Below, in pieces: positions 1-61,530 of a stretch of 64,000 bases of DNA. This DNA comes from Chlorobiota bacterium (lineage in GTDB: Bacteria; Bacteroidota; Ignavibacteria; OLB7): NCBI GenBank assembly GCA_028287785.1, contig JAQBOZ010000007.1:271393-335392 (forward strand), written 5' to 3'. Position 1 is the first letter of the stretch. Every line of letters begins with the position of its first letter. The position numbers and the translations under genes were made by a program. The notes below the pieces were generated by a model, which was given only the letters and a program-made list of their open reading frames with translations, was not told the origin of the DNA and did no database searches.

Positions 1-771
1 GCCGAGGTTCTCGGGGTAACTCCAGACGCCATTCTTCAGATGCGAAACCCAGATCTCCTGATCCCCCCCCTCCGAGTGGGCCGTGGTCGCGAAGTAGATG
101 ACATCCCCGTATGCCCCGACCGAGGCGCCGTAGATGCGGAACGGCGTGCTCTTCTTGAAGAAATCGGTAATGCCCCCGCCAAGGCCGTGGGCATTCTTCC
201 ACTCCCGCGACGGGTTCATATCCGCGCGGTAGAACGGCCCCCCCTGTACCACCCACCCCTTCCTGAGCGATGAGAAGTAGATCGTCCCGCCGTTCGGGCT
301 GATCGACTCCACGGCGTCATCCTCGGCGGTGTTGATCACCGGGCCAAGATTTACCGGCTCGCTCCAGACATCTCCCCCCCTGGCGGATGTGTCGCGGATG
401 GTGAAGTAGATATCGCTGTCGTAGCACCCCTTCTCGGAGCGGAATCTCCCCCAGGAGCGACCGCCGTAACGGGTGGAGTTGAAGAACATGACGCGGCCGT
501 CGGCGGTGATCCGTGGGGTGTTGTCCTGAAAGCCGAGCGCGGTGCCGGCGGCCACCGAATCGTTCCAGCGTCCCAGCATTCGCACTTCGCGGATCGTATC
601 GCCGGAGGGAACGCTGCGCGTTGCATCGACAATCGACGGAGGTTTCCCTTTTCCGATGCCCCTGCGGCCAAGATCCGCGATCGGCTGCGCCGATACCGGG
701 GACACCATAAGTGCCGCCAGCACGCAGAGGAGAACTCCGCCACGAAGGATGAAAATGAGGGATTGCGTCAT
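1..771 (-). CDS. PD40/TolB-like beta-propeller protein with N-terminal signal peptide, partial (runs off the window 5' edge)
   Basis: Hand translation of the reverse strand from the ATG at 769-771 gives MTQSLIFILRGGVLLCVLAALMVSPVSAQP... (cleavable signal) followed by repeated 'DGxxIYFSS/VIYFAT' PD40-like motifs. The frame stays open to position 1, which is why it is missing from the ORF track. AT-rich promoter-like region lies upstream at 860-1110. Confidence 0.6.
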   Translation of the reverse strand, partial: MTQSLIFILRGGVLLCVLAALMVSPVSAQPIADLGRRGIGKGKPPSIVDATRSVPSGDTIREVRMLGRWNDSVAAGTALGFQDNTPRITADGRVMFFNSTRYGGRSWGRFRSEKGCYDSDIYFTIRDTSARGGDVWSEPVNLGPVINTAEDDAVESISPNGGTIYFSSLRKGWVVQGGPFYRADMNPSREWKNAHGLGGGITDFFKKSTPFRIYGASVGAYGDVIYFATTAHSEGGDQEIWVSHLKNGVWSYPENLG

Positions 772-1211
772 ACTGCTTTCAAACTGCCGGGACATTCAGG
801 CCCCGAGGGATGAGACTGCGCGGAGGATCGCACCGATTCCGAAACGTGCCCCTTGCTGATCTGCGAACAGTGGTTCTGGTGCCGACGTGATGTTTCCCTT
901 GCACCGATGCCATTGAATGGTGAGGCATCCCGATCCCACGAGCATCACGTTTTGCTGATTACATAATCATCAAGATATCAAACAAGCCGATTTTTTGTAT
1001 ACACTCGCCGGTTTCCTCCCCCGCGACCGTGGGCCACGCGAGCCCCAACCGCGCATAGAACCAGCACATCAGCGGAGATTGCCGTTTGTTAAATGATGTA
1101 TATATATAGCGTTGCGGTGATCCCATATACGCGACAGCCGGTGGCGATGCTCCAGCGTGGACCGAGAAGCCATCACCACCGACCGTTCACAGATGCCGAA
1201 CCCGGCCGAAT

Positions 1212-1445
1212 CTATTGTCTGGAAATCGAGGTTTCCGCCTTGATCGCAATCAGCGTAGTCGGCTGCTGTTCGCTGCTCAGCCGTTCGCCAAGGACCATCA
1301 GCCCATAGATAGCCCCCATCGCCACCCCAAGCAGCGATGCCAGAAGAATGCCCATCAGAAAAAGCACTTCGCAATCGTACATGAAGCTTCCAATCGCCGC
1401 CAACCCGGTGAGGATCGTCGCGCCATATAATCCATTCTGCTCCAT
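1212..1445 (-). CDS. GlsB/YeaQ/YmgE-family small membrane protein (~77 aa)
   Basis: Internal Met (MEQNGLYGATILTGLAAIG...) is preceded by GGAGGGG 5 nt upstream. There are two glycine-zipper TM helices typical of transglycosylase-associated proteins. The longer 103-aa ORF has no RBS. Confidence 0.45.
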   Translation of the reverse strand: MEQNGLYGATILTGLAAIGSFMYDCEVLFLMGILLASLLGVAMGAIYGLMVLGERLSSEQQPTTLIAIKAETSISRQ

Positions 1446-1669
1446 CGTCTTCCCCTCCAGTCTGTTCACCATCCATCCCTGTTGATAAGCTCCGCTTGCG
1501 GAGCCCGCCCCAATGGGGGTCATAATGCCGAATGATACAATCGGCCTGCCAGGAATTGATGAGAGCGATCATGGGTCGGGTGGAGCGATATCGTGGCAGC
1601 AACAAGCGCGCACGGATGGGGCAACCTTCCGGATATGGCGATCAACGGCGACGGAAACCGGCGTGGCGG

Positions 1670-1906
1670 CTATGCAAGCTCGCCGATTGCCCCTGATGCC
1701 CGGCGCGCCGGGGTGGTTCCGCTCCACTCCTCCGGCTCCTCGTTGCAGCGCCGCGCGGTCCGCTCGATTATCACAAGCGCGCCAAGCAGCAGTCCCACGG
1801 CCAGCATGATGGTAATGCTTACCACGAAAAGGGCGATTCCCGCCCCCATCGAGCCTGCCACCACCATGTTCCGGGCTGTCGAGCGCTCCAGTTCAAGCTG
1901 TTCCAT
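1670..1906 (-). CDS. small single-TM membrane protein, hypothetical
   Basis: 78-aa ORF with GGAGGA 8 nt upstream of the ATG and one strong hydrophobic helix (VVAGSMGAGIALFVVSITIMLAVGLLLGALVII). Confidence 0.35.
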   Translation of the reverse strand: MEQLELERSTARNMVVAGSMGAGIALFVVSITIMLAVGLLLGALVIIERTARRCNEEPEEWSGTTPARRASGAIGELA

Positions 1907-2032
1907 CGTTCATTCCTCCATGGTTTTATTCGCATCGTATCGCAACCGGCTCACGGCATCGGATATCATCATCCAAACCTCATGCAACTGGCCTGCCAAC
2001 CGGGTTCACGGCGGAACGGAATGTGGGGCATT

Positions 2033-3367
2033 TCAAATCAGGCGACGTGCCTTCAGCTCGAGATACTTGTTGATCGTGTTGACGGTAAGGCCGCTTGGCG
2101 GCGTGAGGATGGAATGAATCCCGTAGCGCTGAAGCTCCTTGACGATCTGCCGTTTCTCGAAGGCAAATTTTTCGGCGATCGTCTTCAGGTAGATCTCCTC
2201 CGTGTTCGTGGCCGGGGTCTCCAGCAACGTCCGCAGCTCGGTGTTCTCGAAGAAGACCACCACCAGCAGATGATCGCGGGCGATCTTCCGGAAGTAGGGA
2301 AGATCGCGCTGAAGCGATGTCAGCGTCTCGAAATTGGTGTAGAGGAAGAGAAGGCTCCGCCCTTTGATCCGCTGCCGGATGTTGGCGTAGAGCAGCTCGT
2401 AGCTGGACTCCAGGAAGTTCGTCTGCTGATTGTAGAGCACCTCCAGAATCTGCTGCATCTGCGCCCGGCGGCGCTCGGCCGGGATCACGTTCCCCATCTT
2501 TTCGGCAAATGTGATAAGCCCGGCGCGGTCGTTCTTCAGCAGAGCGATGTTGGAGATGACAAGGCTGGTGTTGATGGCGTAGTCCAGAAGGCTCATCCCC
2601 TCGAACGGCATCTTCATCACCCGCCCCTTGTCGATCAGGCTGTAGACCGGCTGCGACCGCTCATCCTGGTACTGGTTCACCATGAAGGACATCTTCCGCG
2701 CGGTTGCCCGCCAGTTGATCGTCCGGTAATCATCGCCGCGGACATACTCGCGGATCTGATCGAACTCCATCGTCTGCCCGATCCGCCTGATCTTCTTGAT
2801 CCCGGCCTCGTTCAATCGGTTGGAGACGGCCAGCAGTTCGTAGCGGCGCATCTGGATGTAGCTTGGATAGACCGGCACCATCTGGTTCTGCGAGAACCTG
2901 TAGCGCCGCCGCGCCATGCCGATCGGCCCGGCCACAAAGACATTGACCGCCCCGAAGTGATATTCCCCCCGCTCGGTCGGGCGAAGCGAATACGAGAGGA
3001 TCTTCCGCCCCCCCGGCGGAACCACAAGGTCGAAGTTGTTGTCCCGCACCTGAAACTGAAACGGAAGCTCATCGACCACCGAGATCCGGGCCGGAAAGGC
3101 GTAGCCGCTCTCCACATGCACGCGGATCTCGTTGTCATCGCCGTTCGAGAATCGCTCCGGGGCCTCCCGGCTTGCCCGAAGCCCGCGGCCACGGTAGAGG
3201 AGGAGCAGATCCACCACCACCAGCGCAACCACCACCACCACGCTGAGCTTCGCGAAGAAGAAGAGCCCCGGCACGATATAGCCCACCACGAAGAGGAGCA
3301 CCACTCCGCCGAGCGCGAGAAAGAAGCGTTTGTCGAGATAGAAACTTCGGAAGAACGTCATGAGCAT
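2033..3367 (-). CDS. DUF58 family protein (MoxR-associated, vWA-like)
   Basis: N-terminal double TM, then the conserved DUF58 core; it lies immediately downstream of MoxR. The start is chosen at the MLMTFF Met (3367) because the longer ORF (start 3463) overlaps the moxR stop and reads through a palindromic REP-like element at 3380-3400; 3463 remains a possible alternative. Confidence 0.7.
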   Translation of the reverse strand: MLMTFFRSFYLDKRFFLALGGVVLLFVVGYIVPGLFFFAKLSVVVVVALVVVDLLLLYRGRGLRASREAPERFSNGDDNEIRVHVESGYAFPARISVVDELPFQFQVRDNNFDLVVPPGGRKILSYSLRPTERGEYHFGAVNVFVAGPIGMARRRYRFSQNQMVPVYPSYIQMRRYELLAVSNRLNEAGIKKIRRIGQTMEFDQIREYVRGDDYRTINWRATARKMSFMVNQYQDERSQPVYSLIDKGRVMKMPFEGMSLLDYAINTSLVISNIALLKNDRAGLITFAEKMGNVIPAERRRAQMQQILEVLYNQQTNFLESSYELLYANIRQRIKGRSLLFLYTNFETLTSLQRDLPYFRKIARDHLLVVVFFENTELRTLLETPATNTEEIYLKTIAEKFAFEKRQIVKELQRYGIHSILTPPSGLTVNTINKYLELKARRLI

Positions 3368-3434
3368 GCGTCGTGTGTCGGGGGACGTTTCAAACGTGCC
3401 GGAACAATCGTTTAAAGACGGCCGGGGATAAACT

Positions 3435-4457
3435 CTATCGGGGAACTTCGATCCGATCGACAATTCCCTTCACCACGTCATCCGGCGTCACCCCTTCCAT
3501 CTCCTTCTCCGGCGTGATCAGAATCCTGTGGTTCAGCACCGGGCCGACAACGCGCCGGATATCCTCGGGGGTCACAAAATCGCGACCGGCCATCGCCGCG
3601 AACGCCTTTGCCCCCATCATGATGGAGATCGATGCCCGCGGCGAGGCCCCCAGATAGAGCGCGTTGTTGTTACGCGTGCCATCCACGATCTGAGCGATGT
3701 AGCGAAGAAGCGGCCCCTCGCAATGGACCTCCCGAACCTTCGCGCGGAAGGCGGCGATATGCTCCGCGGTCATCACCGGCCCCACCACGCTGATATCGGT
3801 GCTGCTCTTGCGCTGGTGAAAATCGGCAAGGATCTTCACCTCGTCGTCGATCGAGGGATAACCGACAGTGATCTTGAAGAGAAAGCGGTCCAGCTGCGCC
3901 TCCGGCAGACGGTAGGTTCCCTCCTGTTCGATCGGGTTCTGCGTGGCGATCACCAGAAACGGGCTGTCCATCAGGTAGGTCTCCCCATCCACCGTCACCT
4001 GCCGCTCCTCCATCACCTCGAAGAGGGCTGCCTGCGTCTTGGCCGGCGCCCGGTTGATCTCATCGATCAGGATCAGGTTGCTGAAGATCGGCCCGCGCCG
4101 GAACTCGAACTCGGATGACTTCATGTTGAAGATGGAGGTGCCGAGGATATCGGACGGCATCAGATCGGGGGTGAACTGCACGCGGGAGAAGCCGACCGAA
4201 AGCGTGCGGGCGATCAGCTTCGCGGCAAGCGTCTTGGCGATGCCGGGAACCCCTTCGATCAGCACGTGCCCGTCAGCCAGAATGGCCGCCAGCATCTGAT
4301 CCACCATCGCATGCTGCCCCACCATGATCTTCCCCACCTCCATGCGGATGCGATCCATCGCCTCCCGGATATCGCCGAGATCGAGACGGGATGTAAAGAA
4401 CTCCTGACTGTCCATAATGCCCTTCTGTTTCTGATAGGTTTCGGTAGGATTGAACAT
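3435..4457 (-). CDS. MoxR-family AAA+ ATPase
   Basis: Walker A GVPGIAKT, Walker B LILIDEINRA, sensor and arginine-finger region; ~320-340 aa as typical for MoxR. Confidence 0.9.
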   Translation of the reverse strand: MFNPTETYQKQKGIMDSQEFFTSRLDLGDIREAMDRIRMEVGKIMVGQHAMVDQMLAAILADGHVLIEGVPGIAKTLAAKLIARTLSVGFSRVQFTPDLMPSDILGTSIFNMKSSEFEFRRGPIFSNLILIDEINRAPAKTQAALFEVMEERQVTVDGETYLMDSPFLVIATQNPIEQEGTYRLPEAQLDRFLFKITVGYPSIDDEVKILADFHQRKSSTDISVVGPVMTAEHIAAFRAKVREVHCEGPLLRYIAQIVDGTRNNNALYLGASPRASISIMMGAKAFAAMAGRDFVTPEDIRRVVGPVLNHRILITPEKEMEGVTPDDVVKGIVDRIEVPR

Positions 4458-4489
4458 GCGCCGCCACCCGCACCGGTGCCCCGCGGGCG

Positions 4490-5713
4490 CTACCGGCCCC
4501 GCTTCTGGAAACCCTCGATCGCCGCGTTGATCTTCATAAGCTGCTGATCGGTAAGCGAACTGGCGCGCCTGACCTGTTCGATACGATCGAACACCATCCG
4601 CACCTCCTCTTCATCCACGCCGGAGCGGGACGCCACAAGGCGATGAAAATCCCCGCGCAGATCGCTCGACGTGATGCCGAAACGGATGCGGAGATAATCG
4701 AGGAAATAGGTTATCCGCTTCTCGGCGATGTTCCGGTGATCGGCATGCTGGAAATACAACTGCGACACGGTCGCCGCGAACTGAAGAGTGGTGTTCGGAA
4801 GCGGCCTGATCTCCGGGATGATCCTCTGCCGGCGCTTCCCCATGAACAGCATGAAGCAGGCCACGCCGATCAGGCCGATGTAGAACGCCCAGGCGAGCGC
4901 CTCCTGCGAAAGCACGTATCGCATCGGCGAGGTGATCACCCTGCGCCCCACCTTGTAGTACTCGTCCCAGATCACCGTCGCCGGCGGAAGGTAGGAGAGG
5001 GCCTTGTAGATGTACTCCCCGTTCTTCGCATCCAGCACGTTGTAGTTGGTAAACGCATAGGGAAGCGCGCTGAGATAGAACGCACCGCGACCATACCGGA
5101 CCCTGATGAAGTTCGGCTCCCCCAGCGTGTTGATCCCCAGGATCTCCGTTGATGCCGTGTCGAAGTCCTTGAAGTAGCGGTCGGCGACCATCCGCCGGTA
5201 GGAATAGGGGACCGCCGATTTCAGGCTCGGGCTGGTGAAGTTGATCGCGACCTTCGATGAATCCCCACCGAAGACGTTGTAGTTGCCCGCGATGTCGATA
5301 TGGAGCGAATCGGCGAAGTCCGATCCGAACGATTCAGCAGCGACGAAGACCCGGCTCCCGGCGTCGACGAAATCGAACAGCGCCGTGCGGTCCAGCTCGT
5401 CCGGGCTGAACTCCGTGTTGATGATGATGTAGTTCATCTCCTCGCCGGTGTGCCGGGGGTCCCGGTCATCACCCGCGGTATACTCCAGATGCCCGCTTCC
5501 GAGGGCGTTGTACGCCGGCCCGGTGCTGCTGGCAATCGATGCATCGTGGAAGAGATCGGGGAGAAGATCGTAGAGGATGTAGGTTCCGTACGGAACCTTG
5601 TCGTTCCGGGTGAAGCTGGGGGACCAGTTCACCTCGCGCGGCGCCAGTATTCTGGCGATGATCGCGATGATGCCGACCACGGCGAGCGGGATGGTGTAGA
5701 TGCGCCGCTTCAT
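4490..5713 (-). CDS. DUF4350-like membrane-anchored protein
   Basis: N-terminal TM, large extracytoplasmic domain, second TM near residue 270. Its position between DUF4129 and MoxR matches the conserved operon; family assignment is from recall of that context. Confidence 0.6.
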   Translation of the reverse strand: MKRRIYTIPLAVVGIIAIIARILAPREVNWSPSFTRNDKVPYGTYILYDLLPDLFHDASIASSTGPAYNALGSGHLEYTAGDDRDPRHTGEEMNYIIINTEFSPDELDRTALFDFVDAGSRVFVAAESFGSDFADSLHIDIAGNYNVFGGDSSKVAINFTSPSLKSAVPYSYRRMVADRYFKDFDTASTEILGINTLGEPNFIRVRYGRGAFYLSALPYAFTNYNVLDAKNGEYIYKALSYLPPATVIWDEYYKVGRRVITSPMRYVLSQEALAWAFYIGLIGVACFMLFMGKRRQRIIPEIRPLPNTTLQFAATVSQLYFQHADHRNIAEKRITYFLDYLRIRFGITSSDLRGDFHRLVASRSGVDEEEVRMVFDRIEQVRRASSLTDQQLMKINAAIEGFQKRGR

Positions 5714-6516
5714 GCCTCCCTCCGCAGCATCGCGTCGAAGCCGGCAAAGCGCTCCCGGAGGCTTCGAAACATCGTCTCGTCGACCGGCAGATCGCCGTAC
5801 CAGACGTATTCGAACAGCAGCGTCACCTGGGCGAACGGATCGCGGAGCGCCGGCACCGACAGCTCGCGGAGATAGTCGTGGTTGGTCTTCTCCATGCGGA
5901 GCGCGATCATCTTTCGGCTTCCCATCTCCTTCAGCAGCTTCAGATAGTGCAGCCGCACCGCCCGCCTGAAGTTCCGCGCCGCAACCGCCGCCTCGATCAG
6001 CCGGTCGAAATCCATCGTCTCGATATTCTCATCGATCTCCGTGAAGCCCGGCGCCACGGCCTCCCCGTCGCGGAAGAACGCCCCGCGCACCCCGTCGCTC
6101 CTCAGCACAAGGAGCACCAGCCCCAGGCCGATAAGGATCACCGACGGCCAGGAGGTGAGCGCCGACCAGATCTTTCCCGGCGCGGAGCCTGCGCCCTTGC
6201 CGTAGAGATGCTCGCGCAGCCAGGCCAGCACCTTCTGAAAAAACGTCGATGGATCGCGCGGCTTCCGATCGTACAGATAATCGTCGTCATCGGTGAATTT
6301 CTTCAACCGCCGGGCATCGGGCTTTCGGATAAGGATGGTGCTGTGATCGCTGGCGACGCCGTGGTTGCCGCCGACGAGACGGTGCCGGGTGCTGTCGCCA
6401 TACTTCTCCACGGGTATCGGCGCGCTATGCAGGGAATCGTCCTCCTCCTGTGCCGGGAGAGGGACGCATGCGAACAGAAGAAGTGCCAGCACGAGGAGAC
6501 TACCAGCCAGTCGCAT
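5710..6516 (-). CDS. DUF4129-like protein
   Basis: Signal/TM N-terminus, central TM, C-terminal helical domain. Has a 4-nt ATGC start/stop overlap with the downstream gene. Confidence 0.55.
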   Translation of the reverse strand: MRLAGSLLVLALLLFACVPLPAQEEDDSLHSAPIPVEKYGDSTRHRLVGGNHGVASDHSTILIRKPDARRLKKFTDDDDYLYDRKPRDPSTFFQKVLAWLREHLYGKGAGSAPGKIWSALTSWPSVILIGLGLVLLVLRSDGVRGAFFRDGEAVAPGFTEIDENIETMDFDRLIEAAVAARNFRRAVRLHYLKLLKEMGSRKMIALRMEKTNHDYLRELSVPALRDPFAQVTLLFEYVWYGDLPVDETMFRSLRERFAGFDAMLRREA

Positions 6517-7393
6517 CCGCGCTCCCCGGCTTTTCGCTGGAATCGGTATCGTCGGCGGAATCGGCGTCGTTGCCGCCGATCGTCTGAATGCGGCGCATCA
6601 GCCCGACGCCATCATGCTTCTCCCGGAGGTTGAAGTAGTTGAGCGCGGTGGCAACGGTCGGAAGCGCCGAACAGAGAGCGCCGCCGAAGGTGGCGATGAC
6701 GGTTCCGACCATCGACAGCACGCCGAGACGGTCGCCATGCCCCGTGAAATACCCCTCGGCGAACACGGCAAGCAGCGCCGGGATCTCGAAGAAATAGCGC
6801 ATGACCATGGCGATGATGAACGGCACCACGAAGATGCCGAACGCCAGCCACCAGTGGCCGCGGACCAGCTTGATGCTGCGGGAAACCGACTCCGATATCG
6901 AACACCGTTCGTAGACCTGCACGGTGACCACGACGGTATAGATGCCGAAGCAGTAGATGCCGGGGATGAGGAACAGCATGGAGGCCAGGCCGATGACAAT
7001 CGCGCCGCAGAAATAGGTGAAGCTCACCTTCAGCACATCGCGCCGCGTCTCCCCCCAGACCTCCTCAAGCGTAAACCCGTCCGGCCCCTTCTCGGCATAG
7101 AGCGCCACGAACTCGTTGATCACCGTGGTCATCACCGAGAAGGCCAGCACCAGTATCAGCATGGCAAGGAACACCGAGCCGATTGCGCCCCCCGTGGCCC
7201 CGTAGGACCGATAGGGCCCGGCGTTGATCGCGGAGCCGAACAGGAAGCTGGACACCAGCAGCAGCGGGCCGGCAATGAACAGAACGCACTTCCCCAGGAG
7301 CCTGAAATTTTCCCGGATGAACGTGAAGGTGAGGCCAAGCTGATCGCCGAAATCACGCGACTTGAACAGCTCAAGGGGTTCGGAGGTTTCCAT
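6500..7393 (-). CDS. polytopic integral membrane protein of the MoxR-DUF58 operon
   Basis: About 6 predicted TM helices; overlaps both neighbouring genes (translational coupling). Confidence 0.55.
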   Translation of the reverse strand: METSEPLELFKSRDFGDQLGLTFTFIRENFRLLGKCVLFIAGPLLLVSSFLFGSAINAGPYRSYGATGGAIGSVFLAMLILVLAFSVMTTVINEFVALYAEKGPDGFTLEEVWGETRRDVLKVSFTYFCGAIVIGLASMLFLIPGIYCFGIYTVVVTVQVYERCSISESVSRSIKLVRGHWWLAFGIFVVPFIIAMVMRYFFEIPALLAVFAEGYFTGHGDRLGVLSMVGTVIATFGGALCSALPTVATALNYFNLREKHDGVGLMRRIQTIGGNDADSADDTDSSEKPGSADATGW

Positions 7394-8430
7394 CGTTCGA
7401 TATGCGATAGAGGTGACGAGGGTAGATCACGAAGTAGCCGATAACGAACACGAGCGACGCGGAGATGATCGTCAGGCTGGCCCAGATCGGCATCTCCGTG
7501 TAGCGCGTGATAAATGATTCCAGAAAACCGGCGGCGATAAAGACCGGTATCAGCCCCACGATCAGCTTCACCCCACGCACCGCGCCGCGCCGGAAGGACT
7601 CCCTGCGTGAGTAGGTTTTCGGGAAGAGGATGCTGTTTCCCATCACCAGCCCGGCCCCGCCGGCGATGACGATCGCGGAGATCTCCAGCGTCCCGTGAAT
7701 CCAGATCACCAGCGCCGACTGCGCCAGCAGCCCCCGCTCGTAGAAGAAGTACTGGAACACGCCCAGCATCACGCCGTTCTTGAACAGCTCGTACGCGGTG
7801 CCGAACGAGAGGAGAATCCCCTTGACGAACACCATGAACGAGACGAAGATGTTGTTGATGGGGATATACGCGAACATCGTCCCCTCCCCGCTGTGCTTGT
7901 ACACCCCCATGGGGTCGCCCTTGGCGATATTCTCCAGCGTCATGTTGACATAACTATCGCCGAGGATCAACCTGACGAAGTCGCTGTCGTTGGCTGATGA
8001 GAGGGCGCCGATCACGACCGAGATGGCGAAGATCACCAGCGCGTAGAGCATCTCCCGCTGCGACTGGAATGCGGCCAGCGGAACCTCCTCCTTCCAGAAG
8101 GTGATAAACCGGCTGCGCCGTTCCTTCCTGTTGCGATAGATCGCCTGGTGGACCTTCATGGTCAGGCCGTTCAGGTAGAGCGTGGTGTTGCTTTTCGGAT
8201 AGAATGTGCGGGCGTAGGAGAGGTCATCGGTAAGCTGCACGAACAGGTCGGCGAGCTGATCGGGGTTGGCCCGGTCCCGCTCCGCCAGCAGCGTCTCGAA
8301 CTCCTTCCACCGATCGGCATTTTTCCGGAGGAACGCTGCCTCTCTCATACGATTGAACGTCTGGTTGTATCCGTCGGTAATGATGTTCGCGCGCCGGGAG
8401 AAGGAATTCCGCTGGATGGGTCGGGTCATT
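7371..8430 (-). CDS. SpoIIM-like (DUF95) membrane protein
   Basis: Start taken at MTRPIQ (ATG on reverse strand at 8428-8430). It has a soluble N-terminal helical domain and then ~6 TM helices. The 613-aa ORF in the track is an upstream over-extension through Arg/Asp/Glu-rich nonsense. Confidence 0.6.
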
Positions 8431-8498
8431 TTTGCATGTTTGCCGCAACCCGCACACGCCCGCGCCGAATGGCCTCGGCCGGGAGCGAACATAGCCGA

Positions 8499-9230
8499 AT
8501 GCCCATGAAAGTACAAATTCAAACCACGCAAAACGTCGATATCGAGTATGAGGTTGCCAATATCGCCGAACGTATCGGCGCATGGGCGATCGACGCGCTG
8601 ATCCTGTTCGGCTACGCCGTGATCATCTTCGCCATCACCAGCTCTCTGGCGCGGACTTCCTCGATCGGGGAGGGTCCGGTCACCATCATGACGGTGATCT
8701 TCGCCCTTCCCTATCTCTTCTACGAGCTGCTCTGCGAGATCTTCATGAACGGGCAGAGCTTCGGCAAGAAGGTCTTCAAACTCAAGGTGGTGAAGCTCGA
8801 TGGATCGCAGCCGGAGATCGGCGGCTACTTCCTCCGGTGGCTCCTCAGAATCGCCGACATCTGGATAGCCTTCGGCACGGTTGCCGTGGTCACCATCCTC
8901 TTCAACGGCAAGGGGCAGCGCCTTGGCGATCTGGCCGCCGGCACCAGCGTGGTCAAGATCAAGCCCGCGGTCACGCTCTCCGATACCATCCTGGCGAATG
9001 TTGCCGATGATTATGTCCCCACATATCCGCAGGTGATGGAGTTGAAGGATGAGGATATCGCGGTGATCATGGAGGTGCTTACGTCGCGGGAATATCGGGA
9101 TGATCCGACGATCGTGCGGGCACTGGTCACCCGGATTCAGGATACGATCGGCGTGACATCCGAGCTGACGCCGAAGAAATTTCTGCGGACCGTAGTGAAG
9201 GACTACAATCACTACGCAAGCCTGATGTAG
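8499..9230 (+). CDS. RDD family membrane protein
   Basis: MPMKVQIQTTQNVDIEYEV..., three TM helices with conserved R/D residues (RIADIW); divergently transcribed from the SpoIIM-like gene. Confidence 0.7.
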   Translation: MPMKVQIQTTQNVDIEYEVANIAERIGAWAIDALILFGYAVIIFAITSSLARTSSIGEGPVTIMTVIFALPYLFYELLCEIFMNGQSFGKKVFKLKVVKLDGSQPEIGGYFLRWLLRIADIWIAFGTVAVVTILFNGKGQRLGDLAAGTSVVKIKPAVTLSDTILANVADDYVPTYPQVMELKDEDIAVIMEVLTSREYRDDPTIVRALVTRIQDTIGVTSELTPKKFLRTVVKDYNHYASLM

Positions 9231-9370
9231 CAGACGCGCCGGTCACCGGGAGTTTCCCGGCCGGAAGGAATCCGGGAAACTCCAGGCCCCAACGACAAAC
9301 GCCGCTCGCCGATCTTCCCTCAAACGGGAGAAGGATCGACGAGCGGCGTTGTGTATCAGCCCTGACGAAA

Positions 9371-10009
9371 TCAGGGGGTCGTCAGCCGCTGGTCGGAGCT
9401 ATCGGTGGGATCGATCGACGGCGCTCCCGTGCGGGCGCGATCATCCGAGCCCTCGGCCTTCGCCTCGCTTTCTCCCTCGACGCGCATCTCCTCGGCCCAG
9501 GCGCGCTTCTCCATGTTCATCGGGTTGATGCTTGCATCGGACTCCGACTTCACCTCGCCGGCGTGGATATGCCCGCGCCACTCACCCGACTCCGCACGGC
9601 GCGCTTCGATAAAGCTCTTGAACCGTTCCAGATCCCCCTCGACGCTGCGGGAGACGGAGCCCAGCATGTCACCGACGGTCTCGATAAAGCCCTCGGGCTT
9701 GTATTCGATCCGCAGATGAACCTGCGTCCTCTGCTCGTCGATCGGCGTAAAAGTGACGATGCCGGTGTTCTCGGCGCCGGAGACGCTTCGCCACGCGATC
9801 TTCTCGTCCGGCACCTGCGAGGTGATCTCCGCCTCCCACTGCTCCTCCTTGCCGCCGATCTCCGCTTTCCAGTGAAGATGCTTGTCGTCAAGCTGCTTCA
9901 CCTCCGATACGCCGTCCATGAACTGGGGGAACTCCTCGAACTGCGTCCACTGGTTATAGGCGGTGCTGACCGGCACATCCACTTCGATAGATTTTTCGAC
10001 CGTAGCCAT
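9371..10009 (-). CDS. SRPBCC (START/Bet v1-like, polyketide-cyclase fold) protein with acidic C-terminal tail
   Basis: MATVEKSIEVDVPVSTAYNQWTQFEEFPQFM... is a classic SRPBCC N-terminus; start placed at the second Met. Confidence 0.7.
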   Translation of the reverse strand: MATVEKSIEVDVPVSTAYNQWTQFEEFPQFMDGVSEVKQLDDKHLHWKAEIGGKEEQWEAEITSQVPDEKIAWRSVSGAENTGIVTFTPIDEQRTQVHLRIEYKPEGFIETVGDMLGSVSRSVEGDLERFKSFIEARRAESGEWRGHIHAGEVKSESDASINPMNMEKRAWAEEMRVEGESEAKAEGSDDRARTGAPSIDPTDSSDQRLTTP

Positions 10010-10117
10010 ATCGCTGCTCCTTGCGTAATTCATAATCAAGTATTGATCCGGCGGCGCATCCGCGTCCCCGTCATAACCGTCCGGCGCGGCATGCCGCGCC
10101 GGGTTAACCGCTCACGC

Positions 10118-10921
10118 TCAGACCGGGGTGGCCGGATCGGTCTGCATCATCCCTTCGGCCCCACCTGCCGTCCCCTGCGCCGCGCCGCTGCCGCCGGAGG
10201 CCCGCCCGCCGTTCGATGAGCTTTTCCCCTTTGCGCCGGACTTCGCAGCCGAAGCCTTCGAGGCTGAAGCCTTCGAACCGCCTGACTTCGAGTCGCTCGA
10301 TTTCCGCGCCGTGGCTTTGGACGTGGCCGGCGTGCTCGCCGACTTCGAGGCCGATGCCCTGGAAGCGGGGGGCTTGGACGATGCACCCGACCCCCCTCCC
10401 TTCGGGGCGCTCTCCGCATCATCCTCTTCCGTCATGAGCGAGCCCTTGTCATATCCCTTCGACAGCGTCTTCATCGTGGCAAGCGCTGCCTCCTCCTCCT
10501 GAAGGTTGGCGCTGAGGAGCTCCACGGCCTTGTCCATGCCAAGCACCTGGGCTATTTCGATCAGCGCCTCGTAGGCGGTTATCTCGTAACGCTCGGTCTT
10601 GGCGGCGGCGGTCAGGTTGGCGTATTCCAGGATCTCCGGCGTGGGCTTCTCCTTCTTCGTGAAATCCTTTTTCTCCTTGAGCAGTCCCTCGATCGCCGGG
10701 CACTTCTCCGCCTCGGGCGCCTCGCCGAACAGCTTGAAGACCTGCTTCAGTCGCTTGATCTGTCCCAGCGTTTCCTTCTTGTGTGCAGTGAACGCGCGTT
10801 TGATCTCCCGGCTTTTCGATTCACCGGCCAGCTCATCCAGCGCGTCAACAAGCCTGTGTTCGGCATAGTAGATATCCTTGAGATCATGCTCGAACAACTC
10901 GCTCAGCGTTTTGACGGCCAT
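10118..10921 (-). CDS. ferritin-like DUF892 (YciE/YciF-like) protein with Ser/Ala/Lys-rich low-complexity C-terminal tail
   Basis: MAVKTLSELFEHDLKDIYYAEHRLVDAL... matches the DUF892 N-terminus. The C-terminal ~90 aa is a repetitive S/A/K tract. ATG on reverse strand at 10919-10921. Confidence 0.7.
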   Translation of the reverse strand: MAVKTLSELFEHDLKDIYYAEHRLVDALDELAGESKSREIKRAFTAHKKETLGQIKRLKQVFKLFGEAPEAEKCPAIEGLLKEKKDFTKKEKPTPEILEYANLTAAAKTERYEITAYEALIEIAQVLGMDKAVELLSANLQEEEAALATMKTLSKGYDKGSLMTEEDDAESAPKGGGSGASSKPPASRASASKSASTPATSKATARKSSDSKSGGSKASASKASAAKSGAKGKSSSNGGRASGGSGAAQGTAGGAEGMMQTDPATPV

Positions 10922-11140
10922 TGCTCTATCCTTCCTTTTCGAATGATGATTTGATGATTGCCCTGCAATGGCCCGGCTGGCATGCCAGCGGCCCATTCTG
11001 TTACCGGCGTTGTGAGAGTCATGGCAGATGGGAAAACAAGTCTCATGCCAGTGAAGCCGTCTTCTGCCGTCCCCATAAACGACGGAAGCCCCGATCGTTA
11101 CGATCGGAGCTTCGATAATCACATCCGCGATGTCCCCTGA

Positions 11141-11686
11141 TTACGCGGGCATTTCCACCGAGTATCCTTTGGTCCCAAGCTGCTCTCCCATGGCCGCGTA
11201 GGCGGCGGGATCTTCCGGCGCCCAGGTTGCCAGACCATCCACATACCGGTTGTACATGCAGAACGCCGCGGCAATCAGCACCGTGTCATGGATCTCGATA
11301 TCGGTGGCCCCCTGCGCGCGGGCATCGGCGATATCCTCGGCGCTCACGCTTCGCGCGTCGCGCTGCACCTTGCCGGCGATCGCCAGCAGGGATTTCAGTT
11401 TCTCGCTGATCGCGGCGCTCCGGTAATCGCGCCGCACGGCGTTCACCAGATCATCATCACCATCAAGATGGAATGCCGCCACCGCCCCGTGGCAGCTATG
11501 GCAGAATGTGCACTCGTTGAGATAGGAGACGTAGGTGGCGATCAGCTCACGCTCAGAGCGTTCGAGCGAGTTCGGCGCAACCAGCAATACGTTCGCCAGT
11601 TCGTTCATCGGCCTGGCTGTTTCGGGACGGAAGGCCATTGGCCCCACGATGCCGGGAAGCCCTTCCGGGAGTGAAATATGAGCCAT
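11141..11686 (-). CDS. carboxymuconolactone-decarboxylase (AhpD-like) family peroxidase-related enzyme
   Basis: MAHISLPEGLPGIVGPMAFRPE... is the hallmark N-terminus of the 'peroxidase-related enzyme' CMD subfamily; CxxCHxxH motif (CTFCHSCH) present. Confidence 0.75.
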   Translation of the reverse strand: MAHISLPEGLPGIVGPMAFRPETARPMNELANVLLVAPNSLERSERELIATYVSYLNECTFCHSCHGAVAAFHLDGDDDLVNAVRRDYRSAAISEKLKSLLAIAGKVQRDARSVSAEDIADARAQGATDIEIHDTVLIAAAFCMYNRYVDGLATWAPEDPAAYAAMGEQLGTKGYSVEMPA

Positions 11687-12033
11687 GAGAAATAGTTGAT
11701 AAGTGATTCTGATGAAAAGCCCGAAAGGGCCGCCCCTGGAAAGGCCCGCACACGCGGGCCAACGCCGCATTCCGCTATCGGCTTTAACAGTTGCGCGATC
11801 GTTCAGGGTGTGGAATAATGCGAATATCAGCGGTGATTTCCAATCCGGCGACCTCCCACCAACGGGCGTAACAGCGCATTGACGGGCATTACCGTCCCAC
11901 GCGCCAATTCTTATATACGCAATTATTATGATCATCCGGGATATGGTTAACTCCGTATATTAAATGGCGACTACATCAGAGCGCTTCCCTTTTTGACAGT
12001 CTCTCACTGCCGCATCGCACCGACGTTCCCCGC

Positions 12034-15000: not shown

Positions 15001-15327
15001 GGAAAACGGACGTGGGGCGGAGTGGTCGGCATCTGGCCGCGCAACCCGCTGGTGGATGGCTCGGTGACCACGCAGCCGGAGTTTTCGACCTGGTTCGAGG
15101 ATGTGAAGTGGGGGCTGGAGAACTACGGAACCGATCCCGATATCGATGTCGATATCACGCCGCAGGATCATGTGAAGAAGTACGATTCGCAGCTCGAACG
15201 GGCGATCCGCGAAACGCTCCGGCTGATGCAGGAGAAGCCCTTCACCCTTCCGTTCTTCGACGAGCGCCCCACGATGGCGCCGGAACCGCTCCCGAAGCGG
15301 GTCACGACCAACGGCATCAGCCGGTAA
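12034..15327 (+). CDS. tricorn protease homolog (S41B peptidase with N-terminal beta-propellers)
   Basis: 1097 aa; MQSGYYRFP start motif, repeated WD/PD40-like blades, PDZ-like region and C-terminal S41 catalytic domain (GSDGDIFS..., KRTWGGVV). Exact start (12034 vs 12085) not resolved. Confidence 0.85.
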   Translation: MLDESIVFYTETARDPDMQSGYYRFPTVQANTVIFTSEDDLWSVSTDGGIARRLTSSLSEAARPVLSPDGTWLAFMAREEGHYELYSMLASGGEAKRLTFFGTNTRPVGWSRDGSQILFVTNYGQPFRNITRVYSVAPEGGTITEIPVGPATSISYSPVRGTVIGRNTHDTARWKRYRGGTAGDLWIDTDDDGNFHRLITLQANLDAPMWVGERIYFLSDHEGYSNIYSCTPAGADLRRHTDHDKYYCRNASTDGRRIVYHAGADIYLFDPELDQSSRIAIEYHSPRTQRSRKFIQGGNYLQSYGLHPKGHSTALVVRGKPITLGNFAGPVVQHGDQDGTRYRYASYLNDGKRLVALSDRGGEETIVILGGDGSEEEDRLEGLEIGRPTNFVISPKKNQVAFSNHRNEVIVVDLDTRELKLIDRSKTLHDSGLAWSPDGRWLAFNHAEVPETSYLMIANVETGDKHQITEPLLSDLAPAFDPEGRYLYFLSYREFDPVYDNLHFDLGFPRGMRPYLITLRKDVPNPFMPKPKAPAKEMPQLDTEKKREEKKELEVTIDFDGITRRLLPFPAKDAKYSQVIGTRNKVYFVSLPIEGSLTPATPGETSPSGKLESFDFETQKLESSVGGVSDLDVSRDGNTLIYRSGKRLRVFAAGTRPEEKEGVEDPGSNSGWIDLNRARISIAPGAEWRQMYREAWRLQRDFFWTEGMLGINWEQVYSLYLPLLERIGSRSEFSDLIWEMHGELGTSHAYEMGGDYRQPPTYAQGFLGGDLHYDETAQAWTIGRIIRGDAWSQQYGSPLESAGVNISEGDRIIAINGRKVSRTRSPYEQLVNTAGTEISVTFSPKDSDEPKVATFRALRDETPVRYREWVENNRRHVHESTNGKVGYVHVPNMGPLGYSEFHRGFLSEVGHDALIVDVRFNGGGHVSQLILEKLGQKRIGYRLSRHALPEPYPLYAVGGPIVALTNENAGSDGDIFSHGFKLMKLGPLIGKRTWGGVVGIWPRNPLVDGSVTTQPEFSTWFEDVKWGLENYGTDPDIDVDITPQDHVKKYDSQLERAIRETLRLMQEKPFTLPFFDERPTMAPEPLPKRVTTNGISR

Positions 15328-19492: not shown

Positions 19493-19668
19493 TCGGGGAA
19501 CGTTTGAAACGTCCCCTCATGCATGAAGCGTAAGGGGACGTTTCAAACGTCCCCCGACGATCGCTAGAACCGGACGCCCACGGTCATGAAGAGAATCGGT
19601 AAGGGGACGTTTCAAACGTCCCCCGACGATCGCTAGAACCGGACGCCCGCGGTCATGAAGAGAATCGG
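19493..19668. repeat. tandem array: degenerate unit + 2 x 69-bp units, each carrying the palindrome GGGGACGTTTCAAACGTCCCC
   Basis: Units 19531-19599 and 19600-19668 differ at one position. The last 36 nt of each unit equal the last 11 codons plus TAG stop of the upstream outer-membrane-protein gene. Confidence 0.8.
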
Positions 19669-61509: not shown

Positions 61510-61530
61510 GGGGACGTTTTAAACGTCCCC
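61510..61530. repeat. palindrome GGGGACGTTTTAAACGTCCCC between convergent genes
   Basis: Same TAA-GGGGACGTTTyAAACGTCCCC-CGAC context as the copies at 19534 and 19603. Confidence 0.8.

Follow-up and report, generated by a model that had tools for sequence, protein, structure and literature searches.

Seven neighbouring genes at positions 2033–9230 of the window (the whole 64,000-nucleotide stretch of Chlorobiota DNA that was analysed) very probably work together as one MoxR–DUF58 membrane module. The genes for DUF58, MoxR, DUF4350, DUF4129, a polytopic membrane protein and a SpoIIM-like protein are all on the minus strand, and the RDD gene is divergent (Table 1). The best explanation is that the module is vertically inherited and is the FCB form of a widespread MoxR (MRP)–DUF58 system with integral membrane partners. 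The initial annotation had described a membrane-embedded AAA+ remodelling system with no assigned substrate, which is still the best available reading, the domains and gene order having been upheld. That the module as a whole is an ATP-driven machine for the assembly or remodelling of a transmembrane complex is a proposition to which we give about even weight; the specific inside-out mechanism described below is tentative. The cluster itself is already known, having been noted in 2015 (PMC5898192), and is routinely annotated, for example as Rv3689–Rv3695.

Table 1. Features of the MoxR–DUF58 cluster, in window coordinates
Feature	Position	Strand	Support
DUF58 protein, 444 aa	2033..3367	-	Pfam DUF58 E 9e-18; weak VWA_2 match
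Palindrome GGGGACGTTTCAAACGTGCC	3381..3400		inside the 67-nt moxR–DUF58 spacer
MoxR-family (MRP-type) AAA+ ATPase, 340 aa	3435..4457	-	Pfam AAA_3 4e-64, AAA_lid_2 1e-23
DUF4350 protein, 407 aa	4490..5713	-	Pfam 3e-11
DUF4129 protein, 268 aa	5710..6516	-	Pfam 3e-12
Polytopic membrane protein, 297 aa, 5–6 TM, acidic C-terminal tail	6500..7393	-	database tag PF25231
SpoIIM-like protein, 325 aa	7371..8348	-	Pfam SpoIIM 3e-36
Divergent intergenic region SpoIIM-like/RDD	8349..8498		start-codon analysis
RDD-family membrane protein, 241–243 aa	8499..9230	+	Pfam RDD 2e-20; start 8499 or 8505

All seven genes of the initial annotation were found where it had placed them, each of its named domains (DUF58, MoxR, DUF4350, DUF4129, SpoIIM and RDD) was recovered by Pfam HMM search, and the tightly packed junctions that it had listed match the sequence. 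The DUF4129 stop and the DUF4350 start overlap in an ATGA (5710–5713), the stop of the polytopic protein overlaps the DUF4129 start (6500–6516), and the SpoIIM stop overlaps the start of the polytopic protein (7371–7393). These overlaps link four of the genes and count in favour of a single module. Gaps of 32 nt and 67 nt separate DUF4350 from MoxR and MoxR from DUF58, respectively. For DUF58, translation most likely begins at the ATG at 3367, replacing a TTG at 3463. For the SpoIIM-like gene, position 8348 appears the most likely start: the resulting protein agrees in length with the orthologue at locus L001, and the N-terminus MREAAF... is conserved across 66 orthologues. With this start, the upstream region shared with the RDD gene, previously placed at 8431–8498, was revised to ∼8349–8498, while the divergent orientation of the RDD gene stood. 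The region is presumed to be a bidirectional promoter; a scan for sigma-70-type promoters, which does not cover FCB-type promoters, gave no match within it.

The palindrome between moxR and the DUF58 gene was correctly positioned in the initial annotation but is not specific to the operon. Near-identical copies occur at 19497, 19534, 19603 and 61510, where none would be expected by chance, and the palindrome is missing from 123 of 124 related loci. Its RNA fold is unremarkable (z = 0.93). It belongs to a REP-like, genome-specific repeat that is dispersed genome-wide, and is not a feature of the operon.

Conservation was assessed in loci from 120 FCB-group species, an 8-kb block being fetched for each and the order scored where the block reaches. 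The order RDD (divergent), SpoIIM, polytopic protein, DUF4129, DUF4350, MoxR and DUF58 was seen in essentially all 120 species genomes, as the initial annotation had proposed for relatives, and the orthologues share 27–50% protein identity. Adjacency was kept for MoxR in 96 of 103 loci, DUF58 in 72 of 76, DUF4129 in 84 of 90 and SpoIIM in 59 of 60, most misses being ORF-calling artefacts or block ends. In 41 of 48 loci the RDD gene lies upstream and is divergent; in the other seven it is co-directional and downstream of DUF58. Prevotella carries the same gene set. No conserved eighth neighbour was found beside the cluster and no natural fusions were found between its components. The polytopic PF25231 protein is an optional component, dispensable in a quarter of loci: it is present in 54 of the 72 loci with room for it and genuinely missing in 17, where SpoIIM adjoins DUF4129, unfused.

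Beyond the FCB group the genes are rearranged in Alphaproteobacteria and Actinomycetota. Alphaproteobacterial plasmids carry DUF805, DUF4129-like, DUF4350, MoxR, DUF58, SpoIIM and RDD in that order, and a Curtobacterium (Actinomycetota) plasmid has a copy of the cluster. The Mycobacterium Rv3689–Rv3695 (moxR2) region likewise combines, by PGAP annotation, a membrane protein with DUF4350, MoxR, DUF58, a stage II sporulation protein M and RDD (PMC8191103). It differs in having SpoIIM and RDD downstream of DUF58 and in belonging to an actinobacterial monoderm/mycolate envelope. Rv3690 is presumably the orthologue of DUF4129.

The motifs of MoxR are intact: Walker A (G69–T76), Walker B (D132–E133), sensor 1 (N174), the arginine finger (R191) and sensor 2 (R274), all read from the sequence, fall within stretches at least 90% conserved across 104 orthologues. 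The closest PDB entry, 2R44 (42% identity), is a paralogue. By transmembrane (TM) and charge analysis, the DUF58 protein has an N-terminal TM hairpin (∼residues 11–52), a cytoplasmic beta-rich region and then a vWA-like domain, its body being predicted cytoplasmic because the TM flanks are positively charged. Where the initial annotation had partnered MoxR–DUF58 with four membrane proteins, six of the seven proteins are thus membrane proteins, since DUF58 is itself anchored. Predicted topologies throughout are based on hydropathy and the positive-inside rule only. At the MIDAS position DUF58 has D246-K-G-R-V (75 orthologues examined for conservation); judged from sequence, the vWA-like domain is without a MIDAS motif, D-K-G-R replacing DxSxS, and the canonical vWA client-binding paradigm may on that account not carry over. 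A C-terminal motif, LT..INKYLE.KAR, is also conserved in the 75 orthologues.

DUF4350 and DUF4129 are predicted, from topology and AF2 models, each to place a conserved domain in the cytoplasm. In the DUF4350 protein (a family of 3577 clusters), TM1 (5–23) is followed by a ∼250-aa extracytoplasmic alpha/beta domain, TM2 (273–291) and a cytoplasmic region (292–407) made up of a conserved juxtamembrane segment and a five-helix domain. Its AF2 model (pLDDT 86.8) was matched by Foldseek to ADC-synthase structures and to the trimerisation domains of GH42/GH164 (E about 3e-5). The fold modelled for the ectodomain is glutamine-amidotransferase-like (GH42 trimerisation-like) and non-catalytic, and no Cys or His in it is conserved among orthologues. 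The DUF4129 protein consists of a signal peptide ending ..A|Q, a variable ectodomain (23–119), a TM helix (120–138) and, in the cytoplasm, a five-helix bundle with the DUF4129 domain (165–268). The bundle was modelled with pLDDT >93, the ectodomain mostly with <60 and with dips below 50. A structural search of the PDB with the bundle gave no significant match or informative relative, and no homology was detectable among the cytoplasmic domains of the cluster proteins. An orphan DUF4129 gene occurs in Bernardetia.

The SpoIIM-like protein has a ∼99-aa conserved cytoplasmic N-terminal domain (database tag PF28475/DUF8413) before ∼6 TM helices in which polar residues are conserved (NN, IHG..EI and E..TR); the orthologues at loci L001 and L004 are tagged PF28475 and PF01944. 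Against the local Pfam copy, the polytopic protein had only sub-threshold matches to GPDPase_memb and DUF975. The RDD protein has three TM helices with conserved R/D residues and a C-terminal soluble domain of ∼110 aa. Conservation across the module is asymmetric, cytoplasm-facing parts being kept and ectodomains not: the mean frequency of the commonest residue is 0.71 for MoxR, 0.70 for the DUF58 vWA domain, 0.67 for the DUF4350 juxtamembrane segment and 0.62 for the SpoIIM N-domain, compared to 0.40 and 0.24 for the DUF4350 and DUF4129 ectodomains.

From the computed genes, order, conservation, domains, predicted folds and topology and the MIDAS loss, we infer every contact between the proteins, the direction in which they act and what the module does for the cell, as follows. 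A cytoplasmic MoxR hexamer with intact catalytic motifs would be held at the inner membrane face by DUF58. Since an invariant D-K-G-R stands in place of the MIDAS, clients would be recognised without a metal. ATP hydrolysis would assemble or remodel the cytoplasmic ‘handles’ of the bitopic DUF4350 (juxtamembrane segment and five-helix tail) and DUF4129 (five-helix bundle) proteins, which would set the oligomeric state or conformation of the extracytoplasmic parts, chiefly the GH42 trimerisation-like domain. The SpoIIM-like and RDD proteins, with optional PF25231 proteins, would form the membrane platform.

The mechanism is drawn by analogy with NorQ–NorD, CbbQ–CbbO, RavA–ViaA and BchI–BchD, where a MoxR-class AAA+ hexamer and a vWA adaptor remodel or mature a specific client; MoxR–vWA pairs such as NorQ/NorD and RavA/ViaA are generally ATP-driven remodellers and maturases, as cited in PMC11834572 and PMC12067865. 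In those systems the adaptor has a metal-binding MIDAS and the clients are soluble or respiratory enzymes, whereas the adaptor here has lost the MIDAS and is anchored in the membrane, and the presumed clients are membrane proteins encoded in the same cluster. Several observations count against the best explanation: PF25231 is dispensable, haloarchaeal versions lack SpoIIM and RDD, the Bernardetia DUF4129 is an orphan, there are no fusions to prove contact, DUF58 is MIDAS-less, the cytoplasmic domains share no homology and the DUF4129 bundle is without an informative structural relative.

The module could instead serve stress tolerance, in a role analogous to that of the Bat (Bacteroides aerotolerance) operon: it would protect or mature redox proteins or proteins of the envelope when oxidation, heat or slow growth imposes stress. 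This is mechanistically compatible with the remodelling machine, differing only in physiological role, but we consider it unlikely. The Bat operon (MoxR–DUF58–DUF4381–BatA–BatB–(BatC)–BatD) occurs in the same phyla, has an MRP-type MoxR directly before DUF58 and then membrane proteins, and gives stress phenotypes (PMC11834572). The DUF4350 orthologue Rv3691 is required for slow growth of BCG and is upregulated then (PMC2685279), and the mycobacterial cluster (M. chelonae BB28_RS01875–01900/Rv3689–Rv3695) is strongly co-regulated in RNA-seq (PMC8191103). However, the vWA (BatA/BatB), TPR and BatD partners are missing from the locus, their place being taken by DUF4350, DUF4129, SpoIIM and RDD. 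Bat DUF58 also differs in architecture: at ∼306 aa it has neither the TM hairpin nor the N-terminal domain, and its MIDAS is still the canonical DxSxS (DQSSSM in the aligned protein). The MoxRs of this system from FCB and Alphaproteobacteria form one clade (100% bootstrap) apart from Bat-type MoxRs, which in the same tree likewise cluster by operon type and not by taxonomy.

A dedicated protein secretion system, with a conduit built from the membrane proteins and MoxR driving the export or assembly of surface proteins, is similarly improbable. Makarova et al. 2015 predicted a secretion or membrane-remodelling complex, and proposed a novel secretion system, for an archaeal DUF4350 (arCOG01314)–MoxR–vWA neighbourhood, linked DUF4350 by HHpred to GldG of the gliding/T9SS-associated ABC transporter, and noted that bacterial SpoIIM homologues adjoin a vWA protein and a COG0714 ATPase (PMC5898192). 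That neighbourhood shares a bitopic DUF4350 protein with a flavodoxin/GldG-like ectodomain, a COG0714 MoxR and DUF58/vWA; a haloarchaeal plasmid has DUF4350–MoxR–DUF58, and most components here are membrane proteins. The archaeal sets, however, carry Ig-like/S-layer-like proteins (COG4743), the example checked is without SpoIIM, RDD and DUF4129, and the archaeal DUF58 is predicted to be secreted, unlike the predicted cytoplasmic body here. Genes that are cargo-like, S-layer-like or encode Ig domains are not conserved beside the bacterial cluster, and MoxR ATPases are not known to act as translocases. The NCBIfam GldG model fails to match the DUF4350 protein, whose modelled ectodomain resembles an oligomerisation module, not a channel, and the system spans phyla with very different envelopes. 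The link to T9SS raised in the initial annotation is unlikely and unsupported, since the system is also found in phyla without T9SS.

Two further readings are each quite improbable. The SpoIIM-like protein might recruit peptidoglycan hydrolases, by analogy with Bacillus SpoIID/M/P, with MoxR–DUF58 regulating assembly of this cell-wall remodelling scaffold; the SpoIIM match is strong, and apart from SpoIIM itself no member of the family has been characterised (PMC5898192), but the neighbourhood has no conserved gene for SpoIID, SpoIIP or another hydrolase, and SpoIIM homologues occur widely in organisms that do not sporulate and in archaea without peptidoglycan (PMC5898192). Alternatively, RDD, SpoIIM and PF25231 might form a transport or ion-handling pathway gated by MoxR–DUF58, consistent with the polar residues that the SpoIIM-like and RDD proteins conserve within their TM helices. 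The Pfam description of RDD speculates on transport, and one RDD protein is reportedly a cation/proton antiporter. The proteins have no similarity to a characterised transporter family in Pfam or NCBIfam, however, and the bitopic DUF4350 and DUF4129 would be left unexplained.

An anti-phage or conflict system of the MoxR–vWA type, or chance adjacency, is very remote: MoxR has a weak Pfam bpMoxR match (5.5e-09) and MoxR–vWA ternary conflict systems are cited in PMC12067865, but PADLOC gives only generic AAA and RDD matches, beta-propeller and effector genes are missing, and the cluster is single-copy and fixed in order in 120 species across all main FCB orders, unlike defence islands, the fixed order also refuting chance adjacency of unrelated genes.

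No functional study of this system turned up in literature searches. The details that are new here are the anchored, MIDAS-less DUF58, the conserved cytoplasmic parts as against variable ectodomains, and the fold of the DUF4350 ectodomain. In MoxR–DUF58–transglutaminase clusters (TgpA/bifidobacterial PFNA) the pair is also coupled to a membrane protein that has a domain outside the cytoplasm (PMC12067865). The present cluster differs in being without a transglutaminase, and a tblastn search for a DUF4129–TgpA link gave no match. TgpA-type proteins probably have DUF4129 as their C-terminal domain, in which case it would be a cytoplasmic docking handle common to both systems. For the ATP-driven remodelling machine proposed here, the output would be an envelope-facing complex for assembly, maintenance or gating that is not T9SS-specific.

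The ORF listing and translation bore out the six minus-strand genes and the single divergent plus-strand gene of the initial annotation, and the overlaps that it had claimed at 5710–5713, 6500–6516 and 7371–7393 are exact. Every domain it had named was recovered by HMM search well over the curated Pfam threshold: DUF58 (E = 1e-17), DUF4350 (E = 3e-11), DUF4129 (E = 3e-12), RDD (E = 2e-20), SpoIIM (PF01944, E = 2.6e-36) and, for MoxR, the whole AAA_3 profile (PF07726, E = 4.1e-64) followed by AAA_lid_2 (PF17863, E = 1.3e-23). The polytopic membrane protein gave no match in the local Pfam copy; it is PF25231 by its protein-database tag, and the identical sequence occurs in a Kapabacteria-like 'Chlorobi bacterium' MAG. 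NCBIfam has no specific model for any of the seven proteins. The N-terminus of the SpoIIM-like protein (MRE..F.K.N...W) is kept in 66 orthologues, and we therefore placed the start of its gene at 8348. The RDD gene is indeed divergent from it, but the shared upstream region, previously drawn at 8431–8498, extends over 8349–8498 (∼150 bp). Within 1700–9500, no Rfam RNA was found and sigma-70 promoters and terminators were not above chance. Window positions 1–2000, 3′ of the DUF58 gene, hold only short or overlapping ORFs.

Features of the cluster, its flanks and the dispersed palindrome (window coordinates)
Feature	Position	Strand	Remark
ORF	1212–1523		no Pfam match
ORF	1670–1906		no Pfam match
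DUF58 gene	2033–3367	minus	likely start ATG 3367; ORF extends to TTG at 3463
Palindrome copy	3381–3400
MoxR gene	3435–4457	minus	ORF listing and translation
DUF4350 protein gene	4490–5713	minus	ORF listing and translation
DUF4129 protein gene	5710–6516	minus	ORF listing and translation
Polytopic membrane protein gene	6500–7393	minus	ORF listing and translation
SpoIIM-like gene	7371–8348	minus	start from conserved N-terminus
RDD gene	8499/8505–9230	plus	ORF listing and translation
SRPBCC/polyketide-cyclase-like protein	9371–10039		flanks cluster
DUF892 ferritin-like protein	10118–11122		flanks cluster; long Ser/Ala/Lys-rich tail
CMD-family protein	11141–11935		flanks cluster
Tricorn-like S41 protease	12034–15327		flanks cluster; 1097 aa
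Palindrome copy	19497–19516
Palindrome copy	19534–19554
Palindrome copy	19603–19623
Palindrome copy	61510–61530

The seven genes have the same order and orientation in two relatives, where the polytopic protein is 46% and 27% identical. The DUF4350 protein matches 3577 clusters (50% identity) at E ≤ 1e-3 and 1572 at E ≤ 1e-30; nearly all of the matches listed are full-length, at ∼390 aa. To find further loci, a degenerate DNA pattern was designed by hand from the most conserved stretch of this protein (residues 294–332), verified on the window and on known loci, and used to scan one genome per GTDB species. The scan yielded at least 120 loci, all from the FCB group (Flavobacteriales, Cytophagales, Chitinophagales, Sphingobacteriales, Bacteroidales, Ignavibacteria, Rhodothermales, Balneolaceae and Calditrichia), together with two probably mislabelled MAGs. 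Gene order was read by jackhmmer annotation of all ORFs in 8-kb blocks around each locus.

The order RDD< SpoIIM> Memb> DUF4129> DUF4350> MoxR> DUF58>, where Memb is the polytopic protein, was found wherever the block reaches, which excludes the chance adjacency that the initial annotation had allowed for. Where there was room for the gene, MoxR was adjacent in 96 of 103 loci, DUF58 was present in 72 of 76, DUF4129 in 84 of 90 and SpoIIM in 59 of 60, and RDD was divergent in 41 of 48; most of the gaps are artefacts, caused by block ends or by calling ORFs from stop to stop. Two variations recur. In seven loci (L007, L008, L031, L039, L087, L102 and L120), four of them from Ignavibacteria, the RDD gene lies 3′ of the DUF58 gene in the same direction, a layout resembling the alphaproteobacterial and mycobacterial one. 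Of 72 loci, 54 encode the polytopic protein and 17 show a six-gene variant without it (L034, L044, L049, L050, L067, L069, L070, L073, L085, L086, L092, L112, L113, L115, L117, L118 and L121), with the SpoIIM stop abutting the DUF4129 start and both proteins of normal length. The six-gene loci include several Flavobacterium and Polaribacter species, whereas other Flavobacterium retain the polytopic gene.

There is no eighth conserved gene: of 121 loci, only 11 share the most frequent flanking family. Synteny of the SRPBCC, DUF892 and tricorn genes beside the window cluster extends to L001, a Kapabacteria-like relative, and is missing from L004, a Bacteroidota-like one; these genes thus lie outside the system. 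The L004 contig, labelled as a Janthinobacterium lividum MAG and probably misbinned, carries a NADAR-domain gene (14527–15078) between moxR and the DUF58 gene, with the remaining order kept.

The palindrome GGGGACGTTTCAAACGTGCC reported inside the operon does lie in the 67-nt spacer between moxR and the DUF58 gene, but it is not specific to the operon. It belongs to a dispersed 21-nt perfect palindrome, GGGGACGTTTCAAACGTCCCC, with five near-identical copies in the 64 kb. A 69-bp unit, taaggggacgtttcaaacgtcccccgacgatcgctagaaccggacgccc[a/g]cggtcatgaagagaatcgg, is duplicated in tandem near 19.5 kb and contains two of the copies; another copy lies just upstream. No copy was found in the orthologous operons, and the RNA around it folds in no unusual way; we therefore reject a role as a regulatory element of the operon. 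The palindrome is a genome-specific dispersed repeat that by chance occupies the operon's largest intergenic gap, and it looks like a REP/MITE-like element of the host genome.

The ATPase motifs of MoxR, read from the sequence, are intact (Walker A GVPGIAKT at 69–76, Walker B D132-E133, sensor 1 N174, Arg finger R191 and sensor 2 R274), and these stretches are at least 90% conserved among 104 orthologues. With AAA_3 and AAA_lid_2 domains, intact motifs and a DUF58 gene directly downstream, starting 67 nt past the moxR stop, the protein belongs to the MRP (MoxR-proper) subfamily. In a small, distance-based (neighbour-joining) tree, the MoxRs of this cluster type (system-type) from the FCB group and Alphaproteobacteria formed one clade with 100% bootstrap, and the MoxRs of Bat (aerotolerance) operons from Bacteroidota, Alpha- and Gammaproteobacteria formed a separate 100% clade. 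Therefore, the ATPase tracks the type of operon rather than taxonomy. The only solved close relative, 2R44 (42% identity), falls in the non-system clade and is paralogous, not a system-type MoxR.

By hydropathy and charge analysis, DUF58 has an N-terminal TM hairpin with basic flanks on both sides, which places its 390-residue body in the cytoplasm, beside MoxR. The MIDAS position of its vWA-like domain reads D246-K-G-R-V instead of DxSxS with the distal Thr/Asp ligands. The motif IDKGR.M.MPF is kept in 75 orthologues; in FCB proteins the distal MIDAS Asp is replaced (N345, in 'TNFE'), and alphaproteobacterial proteins have D-T/S-G-H/R-L-M at the MIDAS position. In contrast, the one Bat-type sequence compared retains DQSSSM and SDL in the joint alignment. 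The system-type protein also has an extra N-terminal part of ∼190 residues and, at the C-terminus, the conserved motif LT..INKYLE.KAR, neither of which is found in the 306-aa Bat type. A PDB sequence search returned no solved structure of either DUF58 or DUF4350.

The anatomy of the remaining proteins was derived from hydropathy and charge analysis and, for DUF4350 and DUF4129, from AlphaFold models. In the DUF4350 model (pLDDT 86.8), the alpha/beta ectodomain lies between TM1 and TM2, and five helices after TM2 make up a cytoplasmic domain. In Foldseek, the ectodomain resembled the GH42/GH164 glycosidase trimerisation domains as well as ADC-synthase structures (E ∼3e-5), and we read the ADC-synthase match as one to the glutamine-amidotransferase domain. 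This agrees with the published HHpred result tying an archaeal DUF4350 homologue to GldG and to the beta-galactosidase trimerisation domain (PMC5898192). The ectodomain has no conserved Cys or His and is therefore probably non-catalytic, a module for oligomerisation or a scaffold. In the DUF4129 model (pLDDT 74 overall), a signal peptide with the end A|Q, a variable and poorly predicted ectodomain and one TM helix are followed by a confidently modelled cytoplasmic five-helix bundle. A fold search gave no significant PDB relative of the bundle, the best being HEPN-like 2hsb (E = 0.5), and the bundle shows no Rx4-6H motif. The SpoIIM-like protein consists of a conserved cytoplasmic N-domain of 99 residues and a TM bundle with conserved polar residues. 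The RDD protein combines three TM helices with a 110-residue C-terminal domain.

Conservation, expressed as the mean frequency of the commonest residue, was 0.71 for MoxR, 0.70 for the DUF58 vWA-like domain, 0.67 for the DUF4350 juxtamembrane segment and 0.62 for the SpoIIM N-domain, falling to 0.40 for the DUF4350 ectodomain and 0.24 for the DUF4129 ectodomain. By this asymmetry, the machinery under constraint lies at the cytoplasmic face and within the membrane. No natural fusions between components were seen, either in longer DUF4350 homologues, of which DUF4350 is the sole domain, or in the DUF4129 and SpoIIM lengths of loci without the polytopic gene. All-against-all hhalign probabilities (≤2.2%) revealed no detectable homology among the DUF4350 tail, DUF4129 bundle, SpoIIM N-domain, RDD C-domain and polytopic protein tail.

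By analogy, our reading of the module is a MoxR/vWA-like remodeller tethered to the membrane, with co-encoded clients. MoxR docked on DUF58 would act on conserved cytoplasmic parts ('handles') of DUF4350 and DUF4129, and a transmembrane complex would thereby be assembled or switched. The oligomerising DUF4350 ectodomain would form its outward face, and the SpoIIM-like, RDD and optional polytopic proteins its platform. The data show the co-inheritance, the predicted topology, the folds and the MIDAS loss; the contacts, direction of action and output are inferred from the analogy to NorQ/NorD, RavA/ViaA and related pairs.

Other readings start from known systems. The arCOG01314-type system described by Makarova et al. 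in 2015 likewise combines a bitopic DUF4350 protein, a COG0714 MoxR and a DUF58/vWA protein in one operon, and the topology and fold of the window DUF4350 are as described there (PMC5898192). Its Ig-like/S-layer-like proteins (COG4743, pfam07760) had no Pfam match among the seven proteins and no counterpart as a recurrent extra neighbour. A secretion system, as proposed for archaea, is thus unlikely here, its defining partners being absent from the cluster and its conserved neighbours. We similarly doubt a Bat-like stress module: a Bat operon is defined by BatA/BatB vWA membrane proteins, TPR BatC and BatD downstream of MoxR–DUF58, and with genuine Bat operons for comparison, none of these domains appeared in the cluster by Pfam or among the conserved neighbours. 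MoxR–DUF58–TgpA clusters encode a membrane protein with a transglutaminase core and a putative DUF4129 end; Pfam found no transglutaminase domain in the window cluster. With regard to GldA/GldF/GldG, the two-TM topology and flavodoxin/GATase1-like fold of DUF4350 are consistent with a GldG-like periplasmic domain, but the NCBIfam GldG model did not match the protein at E ≤ 0.01, the HHpred link being that of the archaeal homologue only, and the ABC ATPase and ABC-2 permease genes are absent from the window cluster and at least 120 related loci.

A SpoIIM-style peptidoglycan scaffold would account for the SpoIIM-family membrane protein, but it is very unlikely, given that the cluster and conserved neighbours hold no SpoIID/SpoIIP hydrolase and that the hosts are non-sporulating FCB bacteria. 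A gated transporter, whose defining partners are likewise absent from both, is also highly improbable. A defence system was rejected, as PADLOC returned only generic AAA and RDD matches in the cluster, and so was a MoxR–vWA–beta-propeller conflict system, as the bpMoxR match (35.8 bits) is far weaker than AAA_3 and Pfam found no beta-propeller.

The gene set also occurs beyond the FCB loci scanned, and its spread to Alphaproteobacteria and Actinomycetota makes a T9SS-specific role unlikely. The complete set, with its order unchanged, is present in Prevotella sp. oral taxon 299. A tblastn search of plasmids with DUF58 found 52 Rhizobium records and Paracoccus, with the PGAP-annotated order DUF805, hypothetical, hypothetical, MoxR, DUF58, stage II sporulation protein M and RDD. 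One Rhizobium hypothetical matches DUF4129 (E = 5e-4, under threshold) and the other DUF4350 (E = 1.4e-7, over threshold). The DUF805 membrane protein of the Paracoccus and Rhizobium plasmids (L126, 4099–4539; L127, 3928–4374) sits in the slot of the accessory polytopic protein, to which it has no detectable homology (hhalign probability 0.1%), and could be a non-orthologous replacement. An actinobacterial copy on Curtobacterium flaccumfaciens plasmid pCff1 (L131, ∼2600–9300) reads RDD, SpoIIM, ..., MoxR, DUF58; it is frameshifted and split into many short annotated CDSs, reflecting either pseudogene decay or error-rich sequence. A haloarchaeal plasmid carries only DUF58, MoxR and DUF4350, in agreement with the archaeal neighbourhood of Makarova et al. 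(PMC5898192). On a Bernardetia sp. plasmid (L134, 5521–6255), a stand-alone DUF4129 gene (244 aa; 37% identity over the cytoplasmic bundle) adjoins a Crp/Fnr regulator, with no other system genes nearby.

The mycobacterial set carries the annotations Rv3689 (membrane), Rv3691 (DUF4350), Rv3692 (MoxR), Rv3693 (DUF58), Rv3694c (SpoIIM) and Rv3695 (RDD), and an RNA-seq table for M. chelonae lists all its members together (PMC8191103). Rv3691 is needed for slow growth of BCG and is upregulated in that condition, the only phenotypic hint found for the system (PMC2685279). In M. smegmatis, the SigF regulon (stress/stationary phase) includes MSMEG_6606–6612, an operon in which MoxR and DUF58 are accompanied by four hypothetical genes (PMC4694148); this operon is either an orthologue of the window system or a different MoxR operon.

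A bolder reading, to which we give little credence, is that of an unrecognised class of trans-membrane machine in FCB bacteria, Alphaproteobacteria and Actinomycetota. The MoxR lineage dedicated to it, together with a vWA adaptor that is anchored in the membrane and has a metal-free 'pseudo-MIDAS' (D-x-G-R/H), would control an extracytoplasmic DUF4350 and DUF4129 scaffold from the inside out, or export and assemble it, making this a new envelope-biogenesis or secretion system beyond another chaperone pair.

The gene association itself is not new, since the DUF4350–MoxR–vWA neighbourhood was described by Makarova et al. (2015), who also remarked on bacterial SpoIIM beside vWA and COG0714 genes (PMC5898192), and it is routinely annotated in thousands of genomes. 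In full text, DUF4350 is named in only five papers, DUF4129 in two and SpoIIM together with MoxR in one, and no functional study of the cluster was found. The present analysis adds figures for the conservation of the cluster, a variant of six genes, a second position for the RDD gene, a MoxR clade peculiar to the system, the lost MIDAS of system-type DUF58 and the asymmetry in conservation between cytoplasmic parts and ectodomains. The window copy has no feature beyond those in cultured, tractable relatives.

Few uncharacterised AAA+ modules of prokaryotes are as widespread as MRP-type MoxR–DUF58 pairs, and according to a 2025 review it is still unknown what DUF58 does and how it relates to MoxR (PMC12067865). 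As this operon type encodes probable clients beside the ATPase, in an order fixed superphylum-wide and with its own MoxR clade, it is a good entry point to the roles of MoxR ATPases. With 1572 clusters of the signature DUF4350 protein, and with human-associated Prevotella and mycobacteria among the carriers, finding a function would provide an annotation for thousands of genomes.
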